Shown here: positions 17 through 10,760 of the stretch, piece by piece
Numbering within the stretch: the first letter of the stretch is position 1
How the letters are laid out: each line of letters opens with the position of its first letter
The notes under the pieces: generated by a model
The model's database searches: none
What the model was told of the DNA's origin: nothing
The model's input: only the letters and a program-made list of their open reading frames with translations
Translations under genes and position numbers: made by a program
Virus genome (UHGV): UHGV-1844342
Source: a virus
DNA: 11,823 nt
Direction: 5' to 3' (one strand)

Positions 17-490
17 GTGATAACAGGTGTCTGGAAATATAGGGGCAAATCCAGTTGGGTTTGGACTGTACCAAAAGATCACTCAAAAACTGGTGTTGAA
101 ATCGTCAGACCAGTACCTGAAATTCTACGACAGTGGGTAACGGATGTTCACGAAGAGACAAAACATACTGGTTATGTGCTGGGAAGTCTGCGAATTAGAG
201 AAAGCGTAAGCAAGATTGGGGGGAAAATCGGTAAACGTTTGGGCCATGAAAAACAATGGTCACTACACGACCTTAGAAGAACGCTATCTACTCATCTAAG
301 TGATCTCGGTGTTGAATTTTATGTAGTAGAACAACTGTTAGGCCATGCGCTACCTGGCGTGGCAGGTGTTTACAACCGGAGTAAGTTTATGGCTAAAAAA
401 CTGGATGCTCTGGAACTCTGGACTACATATCTCAATAGCATCGCAGGTGCTGATTCAAAAGTGACAATCCTCAAACAAAAGGTTGGTTAA
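17..490 (+). pseudogene. int: Tyrosine integrase (P4/CP4-57 type), C-terminal catalytic fragment only; 5'-truncated or frameshifted
   Basis: Translation has SKTG (conserved Lys region), HDLRRT (His-x-x-Arg), LLGH and GVYNRS (catalytic Tyr) motifs of tyrosine recombinases. In-frame TAA at 14-16 and stops in all three forward frames within the first 45 nt, so the N-terminal domain and box I Arg cannot be read through from upstream. Confidence 0.65.
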
Positions 491-491
491 C

Positions 492-719
492 ATGAAAAAA
501 ATGGCAATTGTTGATAAAAAGGGTCTGGAGTACATTCCTAACATTGACCGAATGATCCGTGAGAAAGAATGTCGGGAGCTAACCACTCTTGCGAACAGCA
601 CACGCTGGAAGCTGGAGAAGGAAGGAAAATTTCCTAAGCGGATCAAGATTGGTTCCACTGCTGTTGCATATCGTCTTTCAGAAGTGCAGGCATGGATTCG
701 AGGTGAGTGGGTAGTTTAA
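492..719 (+). CDS. alpA: AlpA/Vis-family prophage transcriptional regulator (winged HTH)
   Basis: 75-aa product; ...ELTTLANSTRWKLEKEGKFPKRIKIGSTAVAYRLSEVQAWI... fits the AlpA/Vis HTH pattern; sits directly after int as in Gram-negative PICIs; ATG 492 with AAGG 9 nt upstream (track start 483 is a TTG). Confidence 0.8.
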   Translation: MKKMAIVDKKGLEYIPNIDRMIREKECRELTTLANSTRWKLEKEGKFPKRIKIGSTAVAYRLSEVQAWIRGEWVV

Positions 720-2730: not shown

Positions 2731-2921
2731 TGCAGGAAATTACATTACACGAAGCCGCTGAACGTGCGCACCAGACAGAAATTATTTGCCGCCTTCTTGA
2801 GGTATACCCGAACAAAATTACAGATGCTGATATATCCGCACTGGCGAGCCTACTGGCGCGTCTTTCGGGAAGTGTCGCTAGTTTTTTGATTGAGGAAGAA
2901 AGTAAGCTGGTGGGGGATTAA
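2730..2921 (+). CDS. Hypothetical small protein (63 aa)
   Basis: ATG with AAGAGG upstream; stop followed immediately by the next start (TAAATG). Confidence 0.5.
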   Translation: MQEITLHEAAERAHQTEIICRLLEVYPNKITDADISALASLLARLSGSVASFLIEEESKLVGD

Positions 2922-3143
2922 ATGAATACAGAACGGGAAGTCTTTTTTAAATTGTTAGCATGTGCAGAAAGTTCATTAACTTTAAATAATTCAGCAAAAG
3001 CAATATTAAATATGTGGCTTGATTGCATAAATGACAATGAAGATGCAAATATTGCTTATGGCCTGTTGTCACTTATTGATGAAGCAGCAGAAAAACTCAA
3101 TGACGCAATAAATAGTGCCCTGTTATCAAATAAGTCGAGTTAA
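2922..3143 (+). CDS. Hypothetical small protein (73 aa), AT-rich moron-like gene inside the early operon
   Basis: ORF with GGGGGA upstream; base composition clearly lower in GC than flanking genes. Confidence 0.45.
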   Translation: MNTEREVFFKLLACAESSLTLNNSAKAILNMWLDCINDNEDANIAYGLLSLIDEAAEKLNDAINSALLSNKSS

Positions 3144-3160: not shown

Positions 3161-3460
3161 ATGGAAATGAAAAATTCTGGCTTTATTGCCAGCGGCCCCG
3201 CTCGGCCTGAATTTATGAACGGCGATATTTACCGCGATAAATACGGCGGCACGGTAACGATTAAAGGCGTGGCAGAACGGCGCATCACTTACCGCCGTGA
3301 GGGGTATAGCTATGACTGCGTGATGCCTGTTTATCAGTTCCGGCGTGATTTTTCCCTGGTATATGCCGCACCTCGCAGTAAGCCCACCAGCAGGGAAAAA
3401 GCGCGGGGAAACATCCAGAAAATGAAAAGCATGATTAACGCATTCAGGGGCAAAAAATGA
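3161..3460 (+). CDS. Hypothetical protein (99 aa), translationally coupled to the replication gene
   Basis: GAGGAA upstream of ATG; stop overlaps the start of the downstream gene (ATGA at 3457-3460). Confidence 0.55.
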   Translation: MEMKNSGFIASGPARPEFMNGDIYRDKYGGTVTIKGVAERRITYRREGYSYDCVMPVYQFRRDFSLVYAAPRSKPTSREKARGNIQKMKSMINAFRGKK

Positions 3461-5208
3461 AACTGGCACCGAACTTAAAAAAACAGCCACGCGACAGACT
3501 GACAGAGGTAATCATCTTTGCAGGTAGTGATGCGTGGAGCCATGCGAAAGAGTGGCAGGAATGGGCGGGTAAACATATTGCCGCCGACGATGTGCCGCCT
3601 GTCGTGCTGGCTGATGAGCAACTGAAAAACATCATCGATTACCGGATCATTGATGAAGATCGTCAGTGTGTGCGTGTTTACCGCGCAGGACATATCACAG
3701 AGCACAGCATGACGCAGATTGTTACGTTACTGGCTGTGGCTGGAGTGAAGACCGTACACGAATACGCGGGGATTACTGACACCAGCCCCGTGGATTTATC
3801 CGACCAGTTGCCGCGACTCAAAGAGGAATGCGAGCGTGGGGAAAGTCTGGTGCTTAATCTTCCGACGAAGCAAAAGGCGCAACTTTCACAGATGGCAGAC
3901 AGTGAACGTGCACAACTACTTGCCGATCGCTTTGATGGTGTGTGTGTTCATGCAGAAAGTGAAATCGTCCACGTATGGCGCGGCGGGGTATGGTGTCCGG
4001 TCAGCACAATGGAGCTGAGCCGCGAAATGGTGGCGATCTATTCAGAGCACAGGGCCACGTTCAGCAAACGTGTAATCAATAACGCCGTGGAAGCGTTAAA
4101 AGTTATTGCCGACCCCATGGGGGAGCCGTCCGGTGATTTACTACCGTTCACTAATGGTGTGCTTAACCTGAAAACGGGGGATTTTTCTCCGCACTTACCG
4201 GAGCACTGGAGCACCACGCACAATGGCATTGAGTACACGCCACCAGTAGCAGGGGAAAACATCCGCGATAATGCGCCAAATTTCCATAAATGGCTTGAAC
4301 ATGCTGCAGGAAAAGACCCGCGCAAGATGATGCGTATATGTGCCGCGTTATACATGATTATGGCGAACCGCTACGACTGGCAGATGTTCATTGAGGCCAC
4401 CGGAGACGGGGGAAGCGGTAAGAGTACATTTACCCATATTGCCACCCTGCTTGCTGGCAAACAGAACACCGTAAGCGCAGAGATGACATCACTCGATGAT
4501 GCAGGAGGGCGCGCGCAGGTTGTCGGGAGTCGTCTTATCGTCCTTGCCGATCAGCTGAAATATACGGGGGAAGGCACGGGCATCAAGAAAATCACGGGAG
4601 GCGATCCCGTTGAAATTAACCCGAAATATGAGAAGCGATTCACGACGATAATAAGGGCGGTGGTACTGGCAACCAATAACGACCCGATGATCTTTACCGA
4701 ACGGGCCGGAGGTGTGTCACGCCGTCGGGTGATTTTCCGGTTCGACAACATTGTAAGGGAGGACGAAAAAGACAAGGAATTACCGGAAAAGATAGCGGCA
4801 GAAATCCCCGTAATTATCCGCCGCTTGCTGGCTAATTTTGCTGACCCTGAAAAGGCACGGGCTTTATTACTGGAACAGCGTGACGGTGATGAAGCTCTGG
4901 CAATAAAGCAGCAAACGGATCCGGTTGTTGAGCTTTGCGCGGCGCTGGAGTTTCTGGAGGAAGCTCGTGGGCTAATGATGGGCGGTGGTGGTGACACCGT
5001 GAAGTACACGACCAGAAACAGCCTTTACCGTGTCTATATGGCCTTCATGGCATATACAGGAAAGGGGAAATGTTTGAGCGTGAATGAGTTCGGAAAGGCT
5101 ATGAGGTCAGCGGCGAAAGTTTACGGATATGAATATATTACGCGAAAAGTTAAGGGAGTCACGCAGACCAACGCAACGACTACTGATGATTGCGATGCGT
5201 TTTTATAA
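3457..5208 (+). CDS. Replication protein: SF3 helicase with primase-associated N-terminal region (P4 alpha C-terminal / D5-like family; PICI pri-rep analogue)
   Basis: 583 aa; Walker A EATGDGGSGKST (about nt 4395-4430), Walker B-like RLIVLADQ (about 4531-4554), motif C-like VLATNND; iteron origin immediately downstream. Confidence 0.85.
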   Translation: MKLAPNLKKQPRDRLTEVIIFAGSDAWSHAKEWQEWAGKHIAADDVPPVVLADEQLKNIIDYRIIDEDRQCVRVYRAGHITEHSMTQIVTLLAVAGVKTVHEYAGITDTSPVDLSDQLPRLKEECERGESLVLNLPTKQKAQLSQMADSERAQLLADRFDGVCVHAESEIVHVWRGGVWCPVSTMELSREMVAIYSEHRATFSKRVINNAVEALKVIADPMGEPSGDLLPFTNGVLNLKTGDFSPHLPEHWSTTHNGIEYTPPVAGENIRDNAPNFHKWLEHAAGKDPRKMMRICAALYMIMANRYDWQMFIEATGDGGSGKSTFTHIATLLAGKQNTVSAEMTSLDDAGGRAQVVGSRLIVLADQLKYTGEGTGIKKITGGDPVEINPKYEKRFTTIIRAVVLATNNDPMIFTERAGGVSRRRVIFRFDNIVREDEKDKELPEKIAAEIPVIIRRLLANFADPEKARALLLEQRDGDEALAIKQQTDPVVELCAALEFLEEARGLMMGGGGDTVKYTTRNSLYRVYMAFMAYTGKGKCLSVNEFGKAMRSAAKVYGYEYITRKVKGVTQTNATTTDDCDAFL

Positions 5209-5220
5209 AAAATGGCAATG

Positions 5221-5455
5221 GTTATCTACCTTGTCTACCTGACTGAAATAAAATACTTTTATTTCAATGTATTAATGCAGGTAGATAACTATTTTTCACT
5301 GTCTACCTGTTATCTACCTTATCTACCCATTTTTGTAGACAGGTAAGGAGACGGGTAGAGATGAGGTAGACAGCTATTTGGGGCTGTCTACCTCCCTGAA
5401 ACCCGCGCCATTACTGGCCTGATAACTAATCAGGTAGACAAGGTAGACAAGGTGG
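5221..5455. repeat. Iteron-type replication origin: about 12 copies of GGTAGAC(A)/GTCTACC (with GGTAGATA variants) in both orientations flanking an AT-rich spacer (5241-5278)
   Basis: Copies at about 5223, 5233, 5280, 5301, 5312, 5321, 5335, 5353, 5365, 5385, 5433, 5442; tandem pair GGTAGACAAGGTAGACAAGG at 5433-5451; directly 3' of the helicase gene as in PICI/P4 ori. Confidence 0.8.
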
Positions 5456-5497
5456 TGGTGCACAAAAAACTTTTTAAACGAGGGGGTAAAAATAAAA

Positions 5498-5740
5498 ATG
5501 CACACATCAGGAAAACTGAACAAACATATAAAGCCACATTACCGCGCCCTTGATATGGCTGAACACTGGCTAAGGGTGGCGATTAAGGCAATAGACCGCA
5601 ACGCCGGGGAAGGATACGCGAAAGCACATCCCGAACTGATAAGCGCATTCATGACAACGGCGGCTGCAAACTTTGCCACGCTGACCGAACGGGAGATTGC
5701 CGAAGCGGAGGAAGTGACAACCATCAATATTAAGTCCTGA
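5498..5740 (+). CDS. Hypothetical protein (80 aa)
   Basis: ATG with GAGGGGG upstream; no overlapping conflict. Confidence 0.5.
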   Translation: MHTSGKLNKHIKPHYRALDMAEHWLRVAIKAIDRNAGEGYAKAHPELISAFMTTAAANFATLTEREIAEAEEVTTINIKS

Positions 5741-5751
5741 GAGCAGGCAGC

Positions 5752-6201
5752 ATGACGGCGCAAATAGCAGCTTACGGGCGGCTGGTGGACGACCCACAGG
5801 TAAAACATACCAGCAAGGGAACACCCATGACACTGGCACGGATGGCGGTATCTTTGCCATGCAGCCAGGCAGATGACGGAACGGCGACGATGTGGTTATC
5901 TGTGCTGGCGTTTGGCAGACAAGCCGACGCGCTGGCAAAGCATCACAAAGGCGAACTCCTGAGCGTGGCGGGTAATATGCAGGTGAGCCAGTGGAGCGGA
6001 CAGAACGGGGAAACGCGGCAGGGCTGGCAGGTTATCGCAGACAGCGTAATCAGTGCCAGAACGGTGCGACCGGGCGGCAAAAAAGGTCAACAGGGGCAGG
6101 CTACTGATGCACTGAACAGAGCAAAACAACAGGCAGATCAGCAAGGAAGCCATCCACCAGTGGGAGATAATGAGCAATGGGGAGATGATATTCCGTTTTA
6201 A
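5752..6201 (+). CDS. ssb: Single-stranded DNA-binding protein
   Basis: 149 aa; OB-fold-like N-terminal region, Gly/Gln-rich linker, and canonical acidic C-terminal tail ...GDDIPF. Confidence 0.8.
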   Translation: MTAQIAAYGRLVDDPQVKHTSKGTPMTLARMAVSLPCSQADDGTATMWLSVLAFGRQADALAKHHKGELLSVAGNMQVSQWSGQNGETRQGWQVIADSVISARTVRPGGKKGQQGQATDALNRAKQQADQQGSHPPVGDNEQWGDDIPF

Positions 6202-7467: not shown

Positions 7468-7809
7468 ATGGCTACTCATTACACTGAACTCATGGCTGGC
7501 ACTGAAGCACTGGTGACTACGCTGGGGATATTTTCAGCTAATAAAGGGGTAATTCCTGCATTTACGCCACTGATGCAGGAAGATGCAACAGGTGCACTGG
7601 TGGTATGGGATGGTTCGAGCGTAGGTAAAGCGGTTTATGTTTCCGCTGTACAAATCGACACCGCGAAAAAAACACAGGCTCAGGTCTATAAGACAGGTGT
7701 CTTAAATGTTGATGCTCTGAACTGGCCTGAGTCTGTAAAAGAACTGTCAGTAAAGATTGCAGCGTTTGTTGGCTCAGGTATTTCTGTTCAGCCGCTGGCT
7801 CGTGTGTAA
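7468..7809 (+). CDS. Head decoration protein, lambda gpD-like
   Basis: 113 aa; AAGGGGGAG RBS; blocks TPLMQEDATGALVVWDG, VYKTGVLNVDALNWPES and FVGSGISVQ resemble lambda gpD (TPLM..VAWDG, FYKSGTFRYEDVLWPEA, FAGTAISIV) as recalled. Confidence 0.7.
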   Translation: MATHYTELMAGTEALVTTLGIFSANKGVIPAFTPLMQEDATGALVVWDGSSVGKAVYVSAVQIDTAKKTQAQVYKTGVLNVDALNWPESVKELSVKIAAFVGSGISVQPLARV

Positions 7810-7820
7810 AGGGGGATACA

Positions 7821-8204
7821 ATGCAGAATCATTACAATGACCTTAAGCCAATTGCCGAAATGATGTATCCGGATCCAGCAGTAGAGGAATTAAAGGCTAT
7901 TGCTGACAAAATGCGTTTAAGCGAGCGTCTTGTTGATATGAATCAGGTGATGGAACTTACAACCCTGAGTCGTCGTACACTGCTAAACCTTGAAGCACGT
8001 GGAGAGTTCCCCGAACGCGTGCAGGTTACGGAAGGGCGTAAGGCCTGGTATTTAAGCGAAGTGATCGACTGGATAAACAATATTCCGCGCGCTTCTGAAT
8101 ATTGCCGCGTACCTGTCCCAAAAAAGCCAGATGCGGCGCTATGCCTCAAGATTGAGCGTGTACGCCGCAATGCGCGGGATGGTCGCTATAAGCTGATTGG
8201 TTGA
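7821..8204 (+). CDS. Second AlpA-family HTH protein with about 40-aa N-terminal extension; candidate late/packaging regulator
   Basis: 127 aa; AAGGGGGA RBS; core ELTTLSRRTLLNLEARGEFPERVQVTEGRKAWYLSEVIDWI matches the AlpA/Vis winged-HTH pattern. Confidence 0.7.
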   Translation: MQNHYNDLKPIAEMMYPDPAVEELKAIADKMRLSERLVDMNQVMELTTLSRRTLLNLEARGEFPERVQVTEGRKAWYLSEVIDWINNIPRASEYCRVPVPKKPDAALCLKIERVRRNARDGRYKLIG

Positions 8205-8219
8205 TGAAATTAGGGCCCG

Positions 8220-8300
8220 TTCTGGCTGGCGGGTCCTTTCCGGCGATCCAGAACGTTACGGGGCGGCGACCTCGCGGGTTTTCGCTATTTATGAGCATTT
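8220..8300 (+). other. cos: Lambda-type cos site: cosQ-like segment, cosN 12-nt cohesive-end sequence GGGCGGCGACCT (8261-8272), and proximal cosB segment
   Basis: 8223-8294 reads TGGCTGGCGGGTCCTTTCCGG.GATCC....GTTACG GGGCGGCGACCT CGCGGGTTTTCGCTATTTATGA, matching the joined right-end/left-end sequence of phage lambda as recalled; a Nu1-like gene follows as in lambda. Confidence 0.85.
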
Positions 8301-8405
8301 TTAGGGGACTGGTGGTGGTTTTGTTGTTCGCTATATCTGTATGAATAATAAGAGAAAAACACAATCAACACACCAACCTGAAACAGTAATTAAGTTGTGG
8401 TATCA

Positions 8406-8948
8406 ATGAAATTGCACCTGATGAACAAAAAAAACATGGCAAAAAGTTGCCGTGTAAGCGCCACTGCGTTCGATAAGTGGGGAGTGATTCCCGTCGAGCG
8501 TAAGGGCCGCGAGGCGTTTTATGATGTCGCCAGTGTAATAGATAATCGGGTTAACAATGCAATCAGCCAGATTACAAACGAAACGGGCGAGATTGATGAT
8601 GATGAACTCCTACGAGTCAGGATCAGATTGCTGACAGCACAGGCAGAGGCGCAGGAGCTTAAAAACGAGCGCGAACGCGGCGACGTTATTGATACAGCGT
8701 TTTGTATATACGTGCTTTCAAAACTGGCGAGTCAGATTTCTTCAATCATGGACAGCCTGCCGCTTGCCATGACAAGGAAGTTTCCCGACATGAAGCCGTC
8801 TATGCTGGATGGACTGAAAAAAGAAGTTATCAGAGCCTGTAACGCATGCGCAAAACTTGACGAAAACATACCGCTGATGCTGTCCGATTATCTGATGGAA
8901 ACTGCCGGAAACGTACCGGATAAGTTGCAGCTGAATAAAGATAAGTAA
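8406..8948 (+). CDS. Terminase small subunit, lambda Nu1-like (winged HTH N-terminus plus gpA-interaction C-terminus)
   Basis: C-terminal two-thirds aligns with recalled lambda Nu1 (LTAQAEAQELKNER...DTAFCIYVLSKLASQISSIMDSLPLAMTRKFPDM...KLDENIPLMLSDYL vs LTRAQADAQELKNARD...ETAFCTFVLSRIAGEIASILDGLPLSVQRRFPEL...ALDELIPGLLSEYI); N-terminus more divergent; start 8406 by analogy with lambda (8421 is an alternative; track start 8397 is GTG). Confidence 0.8.
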   Translation: MKLHLMNKKNMAKSCRVSATAFDKWGVIPVERKGREAFYDVASVIDNRVNNAISQITNETGEIDDDELLRVRIRLLTAQAEAQELKNERERGDVIDTAFCIYVLSKLASQISSIMDSLPLAMTRKFPDMKPSMLDGLKKEVIRACNACAKLDENIPLMLSDYLMETAGNVPDKLQLNKDK

Positions 8949-9241: not shown

Positions 9242-9983
9242 ATTCCTGATATTCAGGAAAACCACGAATCCGGGGGTTTTACTGGCGCGGTGTACACGGT
9301 GGAACGTATAGCGTTACCTGACTTATTGCATTGTAAAAAGTTGAAAGGCACGGCCTGTAAGATGGGATGTTGTGAGTAGTTTAAAGCTACCCGCAAATTC
9401 TTTCGTTGTGCTGGCACAGGCGGTTAAACCGTCGGTAACTGGATAATCCCCACTGGGGGAAAAGCTGGCTACATCCCTCACATCTGAGGACTGATAACGC
9501 AAAATTGCGTTGGCTGGCAGAGTGCAAATTTGCACGATGGCCTAACCCATTGATTCTTTCGAAAACCCCCATTGGGGGAGAACGGGGGAATAAACCTGAC
9601 TCATTGATTTTTCCACAATCCTTAATTTGAGGAAGCTGGATAGTTGCACTACCCAAAAAGTGCAGTACCCACATAGCTGCTTAATAGCGTTTATTTTTTC
9701 CGCACACCTCAAATCTGAGAAGGCCGGAATGATGACATGGCAGGATTATGATTCCTTGATTTCAAGGAGTCCTCCAGTGTGAAAATGAAATTATCTGGGC
9801 TGGTGGGTGAGTTGCTGATCTGCAACTCGGCTATGAAACTTAATAATCGAACAGCATGTAAATTCATTTCTGTGTATTGCAGCATGTATTGCAACATAGT
9901 CATTCTGGTAGAGATTATGCTCTATTTTTCCTCTTATATCATTCACATACTTACGTCATTGACTCATGTAGCCGAAGCATGAG

Positions 9984-10760
9984 GTGAATCCGCAGATGAC
10001 CCTGCGTCGCCTGCCGGATGAAGATCCGCAGAATCTGGCGGACCCGGCTTACCGCCGCCGTCGCATCATTATGCAGAACATGCGTGACGAAGAGCTGGCC
10101 ATTGCCCAGGTCGAAGAGATGCAGGCAGTTTCTGCCGTGCTTAAGGGCAAATACACCATGACCGGTGAAGCTTTCGATCCGGTTGAGGTGGATATGGGCC
10201 GCAGTGCGGCCAACAACATCACGCAGTCCGGCGGCACGGAGTGGAGCAAGCGTGACAAGTCCACGTATGACCCGACCGACGATATCGAAGCCTACGCGCT
10301 GAACGCCAGCGGAGTGGTGAATATCATCGTGTTTGATCCGAAAGGCTGGGCGCTGTTCCGTTCCTTCAAAGCCGTCAAGGAGAAGCTGGATACTCGTCGC
10401 GGCTCTCATTCCGAGCTGGAGACAGCGGTGAAAGACCTGGGCAAAGCGGTGTCCTACAAGGGGATGTATGGCGATGTGGCCATCGTCGTGTATTCCGGAC
10501 AGTACGTGGAAAACGGCGTCAAAAAGAACTTCCTGCCGGACAACACGATGGTGCTGGGGAACACTCAGGCACGCGGTCTGCGCACCTATGGCTGCATTCA
10601 GGATGCGGACGCACAGCGCGAAGGCATTAACGCCTCTGCCCGTTACCCGAAAAACTGGGTGACCACCGGCGATCCGGCGCGTGAGTTCACCATGATTCAG
10701 TCAGCACCGCTGATGCTGCTGGCTGATCCTGATGAGTTCGTGTCTGTACAACTGGCGTAA
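9984..10760 (+). pseudogene. E: Major capsid protein gpE, 5'-truncated fragment (C-terminal about 258 codons), near-identical to lambda E
   Basis: Translation NPQMTLRRLPDEDPQNLADPAYRRRRIIMQNMRDEELAIAQ...EFVSVQLA matches lambda gpE from about residue 85 to the end as recalled; in-frame TAG at 9969-9971 and non-lambda AT-rich sequence upstream; the track start is a GTG that is internal in lambda. Confidence 0.85.

Follow-up and report, generated by a model that had tools for sequence, protein, structure and literature searches.

A GGTAGAYA iteron field as the probable replication origin of a helper-embedded Gram-negative PICI of Escherichia coli

Introduction

EcCICFT073 is the model Gram-negative PICI. 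Its ori was placed immediately 3' of pri-rep by Fillol-Salom et al. (2018, ISME J; PMC6092414), who found that pri-ori plasmids were maintained at the restrictive temperature and that pri-delta-ori and delta-pri-ori plasmids were lost. The Rep proteins of SaPIs are self-loading SF3 helicases in which a winged helix at the C-terminus binds the cognate iterons lying just downstream of rep; in the SaPI origins the iterons are oppositely directed around an AT-rich region, with at least two per side (PMC9371898). In the annotation of the P4 record, ori consists of six type-1 repeats (TGTTCACC; GGTGAACA) and crr of two 120-bp repeats directly after alpha.

The founding example of the helper-embedded PICIs is 11capE (Barcia-Cruz et al., 2023, NAR Genom Bioinform; PMC10111431). 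After induction of 11capE, two of three replicates gave an attP:attB ratio near 1 (PMC10111431), replication after excision being weak or absent in these, for which reason an origin in this setting may fire weakly.

The sequence analysed here (the window, 11,823 nt) belongs to a chromosomal element of E. coli. It was compared with these systems, and positions 5223-5449, with flanks of about 5209-5480, are very probably the replication origin of a Gram-negative PICI, as predicted from the alignments and motif layouts described below.

Materials and Methods

Related loci (about 90, given L numbers) were collected by an alignment scan of viral contigs and by distant blastn of E. coli genomes; a helicase scan of genome contigs contributed only four of them. 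L001, 18.4 kb long, contains a copy of the element plus its flanks and covers the first ~750 nt of int, which the window is without. Repeat layouts of P4 and of the window were all read in the direction of the initiator gene. The C-terminal binding domain of the helicase was modelled alone with single-sequence AlphaFold2, and the full-length protein was modelled from 31 homologues.

Results

Gene context and host element

The 411 nt around the repeat field were present in 78 of 5,426 complete E. coli genomes, with at least 99% identity in 76. The tabulated island genes all lie on the plus strand:

17-490, plus strand: integrase, C-terminus
483-719, plus strand: AlpA
between 719 and 3161, plus strand: small ORFs
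3161-3460, plus strand: DUF4222 protein
3457-5208, plus strand: P4 alpha-like SF3 helicase/replication initiator (583 aa)
5498-5740, plus strand: conserved 80-aa ORF, first gene past the predicted origin (phrog_1231, E 8.5e-46)
5752-6201, plus strand: SSB, satellite-encoded, replication module (Pfam SSB, E 1.2e-14; phrog_44)
to 7458, plus strand: lambda E-like capsid protein
7468-7809, plus strand: D-like decoration protein
7821-8204, plus strand: second AlpA-like protein
8397-8948, plus strand: Nu1-like small terminase (TerS)

The organisation is that of a PICI, with int, AlpA, helicase, SSB, homologues of capsid E and D, a Nu1-like TerS and a helper-type cos site. In EcCICFT073 and Nissle a small hypothetical ORF occupies the position of the 80-aa ORF.

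From about 9984 the window encodes a lambda-type capsid E, of which the C-terminal two-thirds are present; FI and a head-tail protein come next. In NZ_CP019903 the island has the N-terminal part of the capsid gene on its other side, and the two fragments flank it. This helper-embedded configuration covers about 9969-10760 of the window and 2881-3126 and 14048-14836 of L001. The element is assigned, on the evidence of these junctions, to the helper-embedded PICIs of the 11capE type, inserted in the capsid gene of a lambda-like prophage. Like 11capE it is an island of ~11 kb inside a lambda-like major capsid gene E, whose orientation it shares, and it brings an E-like capsid gene of its own along with a primase-family gene and an origin. 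EcCICFT073, in contrast, sits at a chromosomal site.

Several further features of the element were recorded. The capsid reading frame ...PKHEVNPQMTLRRL resumes at about 9969. The right end of the island (9700-9857) was found in full in five E. coli genomes, as against 78 for the origin, so the accessory zone by attR is variable among islands at the same site; in many further genomes the match begins only at 9857 or 9938. A very AT-rich accessory segment (700-1550), in which 40-mers fall to 15% GC, separates alpA from the Icd-like/YlcI region; for its minus-strand ORF at 789-1325 (178 aa) the only Pfam hits were below threshold and to domains of unknown function.

Layout of the iteron field

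The helicase ORF is followed by 289 nt of noncoding sequence, which ends at the ATG at 5498, and the first iteron begins 15 nt after the stop codon. Exact GGTAGAC occurs six times in the 11,823-nt window, always between 5233 and 5448 (expected 0.61; six was reached in 0 of 200 shuffles). When one mismatch was allowed, GGTAGAYA had 23 sites in the window, 12 of them inside 5223-5449 (ten exact and two singly mismatched; six per strand). The remaining 11 all carry one mismatch and are dispersed across the rest of the window, the chance expectation for the whole window being 11.2. In L001 all ten exact sites fall in the field. The sites start at 5223(-), 5232(-), 5280(+), 5300(-), 5311(-) and 5320(-) in the left half and at 5334(+, TGTAGACA), 5354(+, GGTAGAGA), 5365(+), 5385(-), 5433(+) and 5442(+) in the right half, with start-to-start gaps of 9, 48, 20, 11, 9, 14, 20, 11, 20, 48 and 9 nt. 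The features are as follows:

5223-5239, minus strand: left outer iteron pair (GGTAGATA, GGTAGACA), 9-bp spacing, kept in EcCICFT073, Nissle and Shigella
5240-5279, no strand: AT-rich spacer, candidate DNA-unwinding element, 20% GC
5280-5287, plus strand: single iteron in opposite orientation to the left pair, position and orientation as in P4 ori
5300-5327, minus strand: iteron triplet (5300, 5311, 5320), completing a P4-ori-like module (- - AT + - - -)
5334-5341, plus strand: degenerate repeat TGTAGACA, one mismatch, lineage-specific
5354-5372, plus strand: iteron pair GGTAGAGA and GGTAGACA, 11-bp spacing, conserved in the alignment of relatives
5385-5392, minus strand: single iteron of the right-hand module, conserved in the alignment of relatives
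5393-5432, no strand: GC-richer 40-bp spacer of the right (crr-like) module, containing the conserved block CTGAAA...GCGCCATTACTGGC
5433-5449, plus strand: right outer iteron pair, 9-bp spacing, mirroring the left outer pair
5464-5475, no strand: A-tract/T-tract motif AAAAAACTTTTT after the last iteron pair, conserved in EcCICFT073, Nissle and Shigella

The region of the left outer pair (5223-5239) and 5430-5450 form an inverted repeat of 21 nt with 95% complementarity. The original prediction had described about twelve iterons in both orientations directly after the helicase gene, and both points were borne out. All twelve are present in the window, but the EcCICFT073, Nissle and Shigella relatives do not share the repeat at 5334-5341, which is possibly not a functional iteron; this leaves 11 conserved positions and not 12. 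The unwinding-like AT-rich spacer that it had placed at the centre is real and lies off-centre, between repeats 2 and 3.

The 40-mer at 5248 within this spacer had a dG of -41.9, where the mean for the window is -54.1 (sd 5.0); it is thus ~2.5 sd less stable, and has the lowest stability of all 40-mers downstream of ~3000. Greater AT-richness than in the spacer is found in the accessory region at 700-1550. The equivalent first spacer had 13-24% GC in all eight relatives measured, irrespective of their iteron. A perfect 10-bp inverted repeat, TGAAATAAAA-TAC-TTTTATTTCA, was also seen in the spacer (5244-5253/5257-5266) and is only weakly conserved in EcCICFT073.

Outside the iterons, the block CTGAAA..GCGCCATTACTGGC (5396-5420) is invariant across two lineages with divergent surroundings; CTGAAA is common to the right module and both P4 crr repeats, and the block could be a host-factor site. 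The AAAAAACTTTTT motif recurs in loci from Morganella and ETEC and follows each of the two P4 crr repeats, and a similar A/T-tract, AAAAGTTTT, stands at the corresponding place in Serratia. A AAAACTTTTT motif is conserved between the field and EcCICFT073. The block AAAACTTTTTAAACGAGGGGGTAAAAATAAA (5466-5496), which includes the RBS of the 80-aa ORF, is invariant between lineages with differing spacers. No match at gathering thresholds was obtained from Rfam for the whole window.

Plasmid iteron origins have 17-22 bp direct repeats in one orientation, a Rep_3-type initiator and usually DnaA boxes. A RepA/Rep_3-type plasmid iteron origin was rejected for the window, where the repeats are 8 bp long and on both strands and the initiator is an SF3 helicase. 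A candidate DnaA box, TTATCTACC at 5222-5230, has two mismatches to TTATNCACA and is replaced by CTGTCTACC in relatives; being mismatched and unconserved, it was rejected as well.

The initiator protein

Pfam assigned D5_N, DUF5906 (the SF3 helicase core) and, marginally, Pox_D5 to the protein encoded at 3457-5208. Over aa 137-579 it shares 41% identity with P4 alpha (tblastn), and it matches PDB 7OLA (SaPI5 PriRep5) over aa 219-441 (E 4e-14) and PDB 1KA8, the P4 origin-binding domain, over aa 487-578 (E 2e-7). The last match supports a predicted origin-binding domain of winged-helix type at the C-terminus (aa 487-578). Its fold is assigned from sequence homology with 1KA8, the structure models having low confidence: pLDDT was 39 for the binding domain alone and 45.6 for the full-length protein, the latter low because all usable homologues are at least 79% identical. 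Only aa 1-128 (3457-3850) were modelled confidently (pLDDT 70-92), as alternating strand and helix. A Foldseek search of the full-length model against the PDB returned nothing below E 0.2.

In the alignment of the helicases, the window protein is without the zinc-ribbon/TOPRIM primase domain that is found in P4 alpha and in a Morganella relative. The primase part of P4 alpha is replaced by a domain of ~140 aa without a family match, and Pfam likewise gave no family for aa 1-150. Since the primase domain is missing, helicase is the right label and the RefSeq name, DNA primase family protein, is nominal.

The N-terminal domain of the helicase is mosaic among relatives, being 34-49% identical where the core is 84-94% identical. 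The DUF4222 gene (3161-3460) overlaps the helicase start codon. Its slot is that of P4 ORF106, which we take to be cnr, a copy-number regulator binding alpha, upstream of alpha; between the DUF4222 protein and P4 ORF106 no homology was detectable, and the likeness is one of position.

Comparison with EcCICFT073, P4 and the SaPIs

The intergenic region 3' of pri-rep in EcCICFT073 (289 nt) aligns with the field, with the 11 iteron positions and the AT-rich spacer conserved. The two elements share the GGTAGAYA iteron and the gene order, with a small ORF and ssb next, and their initiators are 80% identical. The other spacers and 5328-5353 have diverged, and the degenerate repeat at 5334 is extra in the window. 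Features of a Gram-negative PICI ori found in the field are the pair at 5223/5232, the spacer of 20% GC at 5240-5279 and nine or ten more sites.

Compared with the P4 type-1 iteron, GGTAGAYA differs at two of eight bases, and the two elements agree in layout half by half:

P4 ori: - - (AT-rich) + - - -, gaps 10, 43, 22, 11, 10
window, left half: - - (AT-rich) + - - -, gaps 9, 48, 20, 11, 9
one P4 crr repeat: + - - (43) + +, then an A/T-tract
window, right half: (+) + + - (48) + +, then AAAAAACTTTTT

The pair at 5433-5449 is the counterpart of the + + pair that closes each P4 crr repeat, and the relative orientation of the ori-like and crr-like modules is the same in P4 and the window. Because the halves match in this way, the field is read as a head-to-head union of an ori-like with a crr-like module. 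In P4, ori and crr are 4.5 kb apart, whereas both modules are contiguous in about 230 bp of the window; the crr of P4 is a duplication (2 x 120 bp), while the crr-like part of the window is single; and P4 alpha has a primase domain, which the window initiator is without.

The likeness to the SaPIs lies in an SF3 helicase with a C-terminal winged helix, 6-12 short iterons after rep and cognate specificity. The elements of a SaPI-type origin, iterons on both sides of an AT-rich stretch and an SF3 Rep with a winged helix, were all recognised in the window, the fold through homology. SaPI iterons, however, are 5-6 nt long and their AT-rich region is roughly central, whereas the repeats here are 8 nt long and the spacer is off-centre, and sequence similarity is distant only, the ATPase domain matching 7OLA.

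Iteron classes among related loci

In every related locus with enough downstream sequence, the ~300 nt past the helicase gene hold 6-12 copies (9-12 in most loci) of one short motif. The motifs and the loci in which they were found are:

GGTAGAYA: this window, EcCICFT073, Nissle, Shigella
GGTAGAGG: L026, L029, L037 and others
GGTGAACA (the P4 type-1 iteron): L003, L007, L011
ATGAACAC: L004, L080 and others
GGTATACA: L081, L082 and others

The orientation string '--+---++-++' and its gaps recur in the GGTAGAGG, GGTGAACA, ATGAACAC and GGTATACA relatives. Among distinct loci with the GGTAGA core, which are phylogenetically non-independent, 53 of 54 show covariation between bases 7-8 of the iteron and residues 543/546 of the binding domain: N543/G546 goes with YA in 28 of 28, and A/S or G/G is paired with NG in 25 of 26. 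Residue 543 is placed at the start of the third (recognition) helix from predicted secondary structure only, the models there being of low confidence (pLDDT <50).

The switch between N/G and A/S or G/G was seen in two separate clades, with helicase cores at least 91% and 84% identical, respectively. L030 and L037 differ at four positions in their last 125 aa, three of them in the motif (VNDFGK vs VAEFSK), and their iterons differ. In L026 the N-terminal domain is 99% identical to that of the window protein, and the binding domain and origin are both GG-type; the binding domain and the origin thus travel together. In the clade at 53-54%, a change in the predicted wing (KTRGVV vs [AN]RGMV) goes with ATGAACAC vs GGTATACA. 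The sole exception to the covariation, L044 (an IMG/VR contig), pairs a VAEFSK (A/S) binding domain with YA-type iterons. Recombination within the last ~40 codons of the helicase gene apparently gave rise to it, and it represents either a mismatched replicon or a tolerant code.

In the clade with 84% identical helicase cores (L009 7255-7570, ETEC1734; L071-L074) the modules are reversed, the crr-like one coming first and the ori-like one second. This reversal suggests that the two modules are separable. In ETEC1734 the reversed modules are followed by a fragment of a RepA-family helicase gene.

Alternative explanations

The repeats might instead be mainly operator sites, for AlpA, the second AlpA-like protein or the initiator acting as repressor, that control the 80-aa ORF, ssb, capsid, decoration and terS genes. 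An operator array would suit the position of the field just upstream of the co-oriented gene block starting at 5498, the single direction of the island genes, and the unusual conservation of the 30 nt before the ATG. A scan of 5000-5800, however, found neither a sigma-70-like promoter nor a terminator. Covariation links the repeats to the binding domain of the helicase, their architecture equals that of the annotated P4 ori/crr, and the field persists where the downstream genes are wholly different (ProQ/PerC). Deletion of ori, moreover, abolishes replication in EcCICFT073 (PMC6092414). A mainly regulatory function is accordingly improbable; a secondary regulatory role for the repeats is possible.

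Fainter still is the prospect that the field is a crr-like enhancer only, with the true initiation site elsewhere in the island. The repeats directly after P4 alpha are crr, with P4 ori 4.5 kb away, and the right half of the field does resemble a crr repeat. The left half, however, shows the P4 ori layout with its AT-rich spacer. What makes this reading unlikely is that no second GGTAGAYA cluster was found in the window or in L001.

It is scarcely credible that the Nu1-like TerS of the island (8397-8948) recognises the repeats for packaging, as a cos/pac site. Terminase recognition sites are often repeated, but an exact lambda cosN, GGGCGGCGACCT, with its flank lies at 8261-8272, between the second AlpA-like gene and the adjoining terS. 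About 38 nt here (about 8255-8300) appear to match the lambda left end. The island carries a helper-type cos site apart from the iteron field. Relatives without capsid and terS genes retain the field, and the repeats track the helicase domain and not TerS.

A chance or low-complexity artefact, for which the shortness of the motif might speak, is refuted by the shuffles, none of which reached the observed counts, and by conservation of the sites across diverged lineages.

Discussion

Replication-origin function of the field had been proposed in the original prediction, and the alignment with EcCICFT073, the 1KA8-like domain and the P4 ori/crr layout uphold it at the level of sequence analysis. 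The further proposal that the iteron sequence defines a specificity group agrees with relatives that keep the architecture and in which iteron change tracks substitutions in the binding domain. The naming of the gene as a helicase was apt for an SF3 protein with no primase domain, and the suggested comparison of the iteron with known PICI and P4 origins, when run, gave identity with the EcCICFT073 iteron and two of eight bases off P4.

For an origin of this kind, a mechanism may be proposed by homology. The island helicase/initiator (3457-5208) would bind the 8-bp GGTAGAYA iterons through its C-terminal winged-helix domain. At the left module (two iterons, the 40-bp AT-rich spacer, one inverted iteron and three iterons), duplex opening and self-loading of the SF3 helicase would take place, as homologous systems suggest. 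The right module, an inverted and GC-richer copy, would correspond to the crr that P4 requires in cis, and by the same homology may supply extra initiator-binding sites that cooperate with the left module. The island SSB (5752-6201) would presumably coat the unwound strands. Because the initiator is without a primase domain, priming from the host or the helper phage would be required. The iteron sequence, bases 7-8 included, would be matched to N543/G546 at the start of the third helix, and being so matched to residues of the binding domain it would set which initiator fires the origin.

A wider reading joins two proposals: a recognition code in which residues 543/546 read bases 7-8, and a PICI origin that represents a fused P4 ori/crr. 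We advance the two together tentatively, and lean slightly against their both being right. In the first, N..G as against A..S or G..G would read YA as against NG. If true, the code would split initiators that are >90% identical in the helicase core into non-cross-reacting replicon groups, and could let several PICIs share one cell. In the second, the split arrangement of P4 would be a rearranged form of the compact unit, or the reverse.

The origin class was known and tested in 2018 and the element type was described in 2023, so both are already known. The fused ori-crr architecture and the residue-to-base covariation are not stated in the papers cited here and are modest extensions. The current picture is unchanged, and the sequence is placed firmly in a described class. 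The origin and its specificity class show which initiator would replicate the island, and the specificity class bears on cross-activation or exclusion between co-resident satellites. The origin also bears on the question raised in 2023 of whether the satellite has a part in replicating the prophage-satellite composite.
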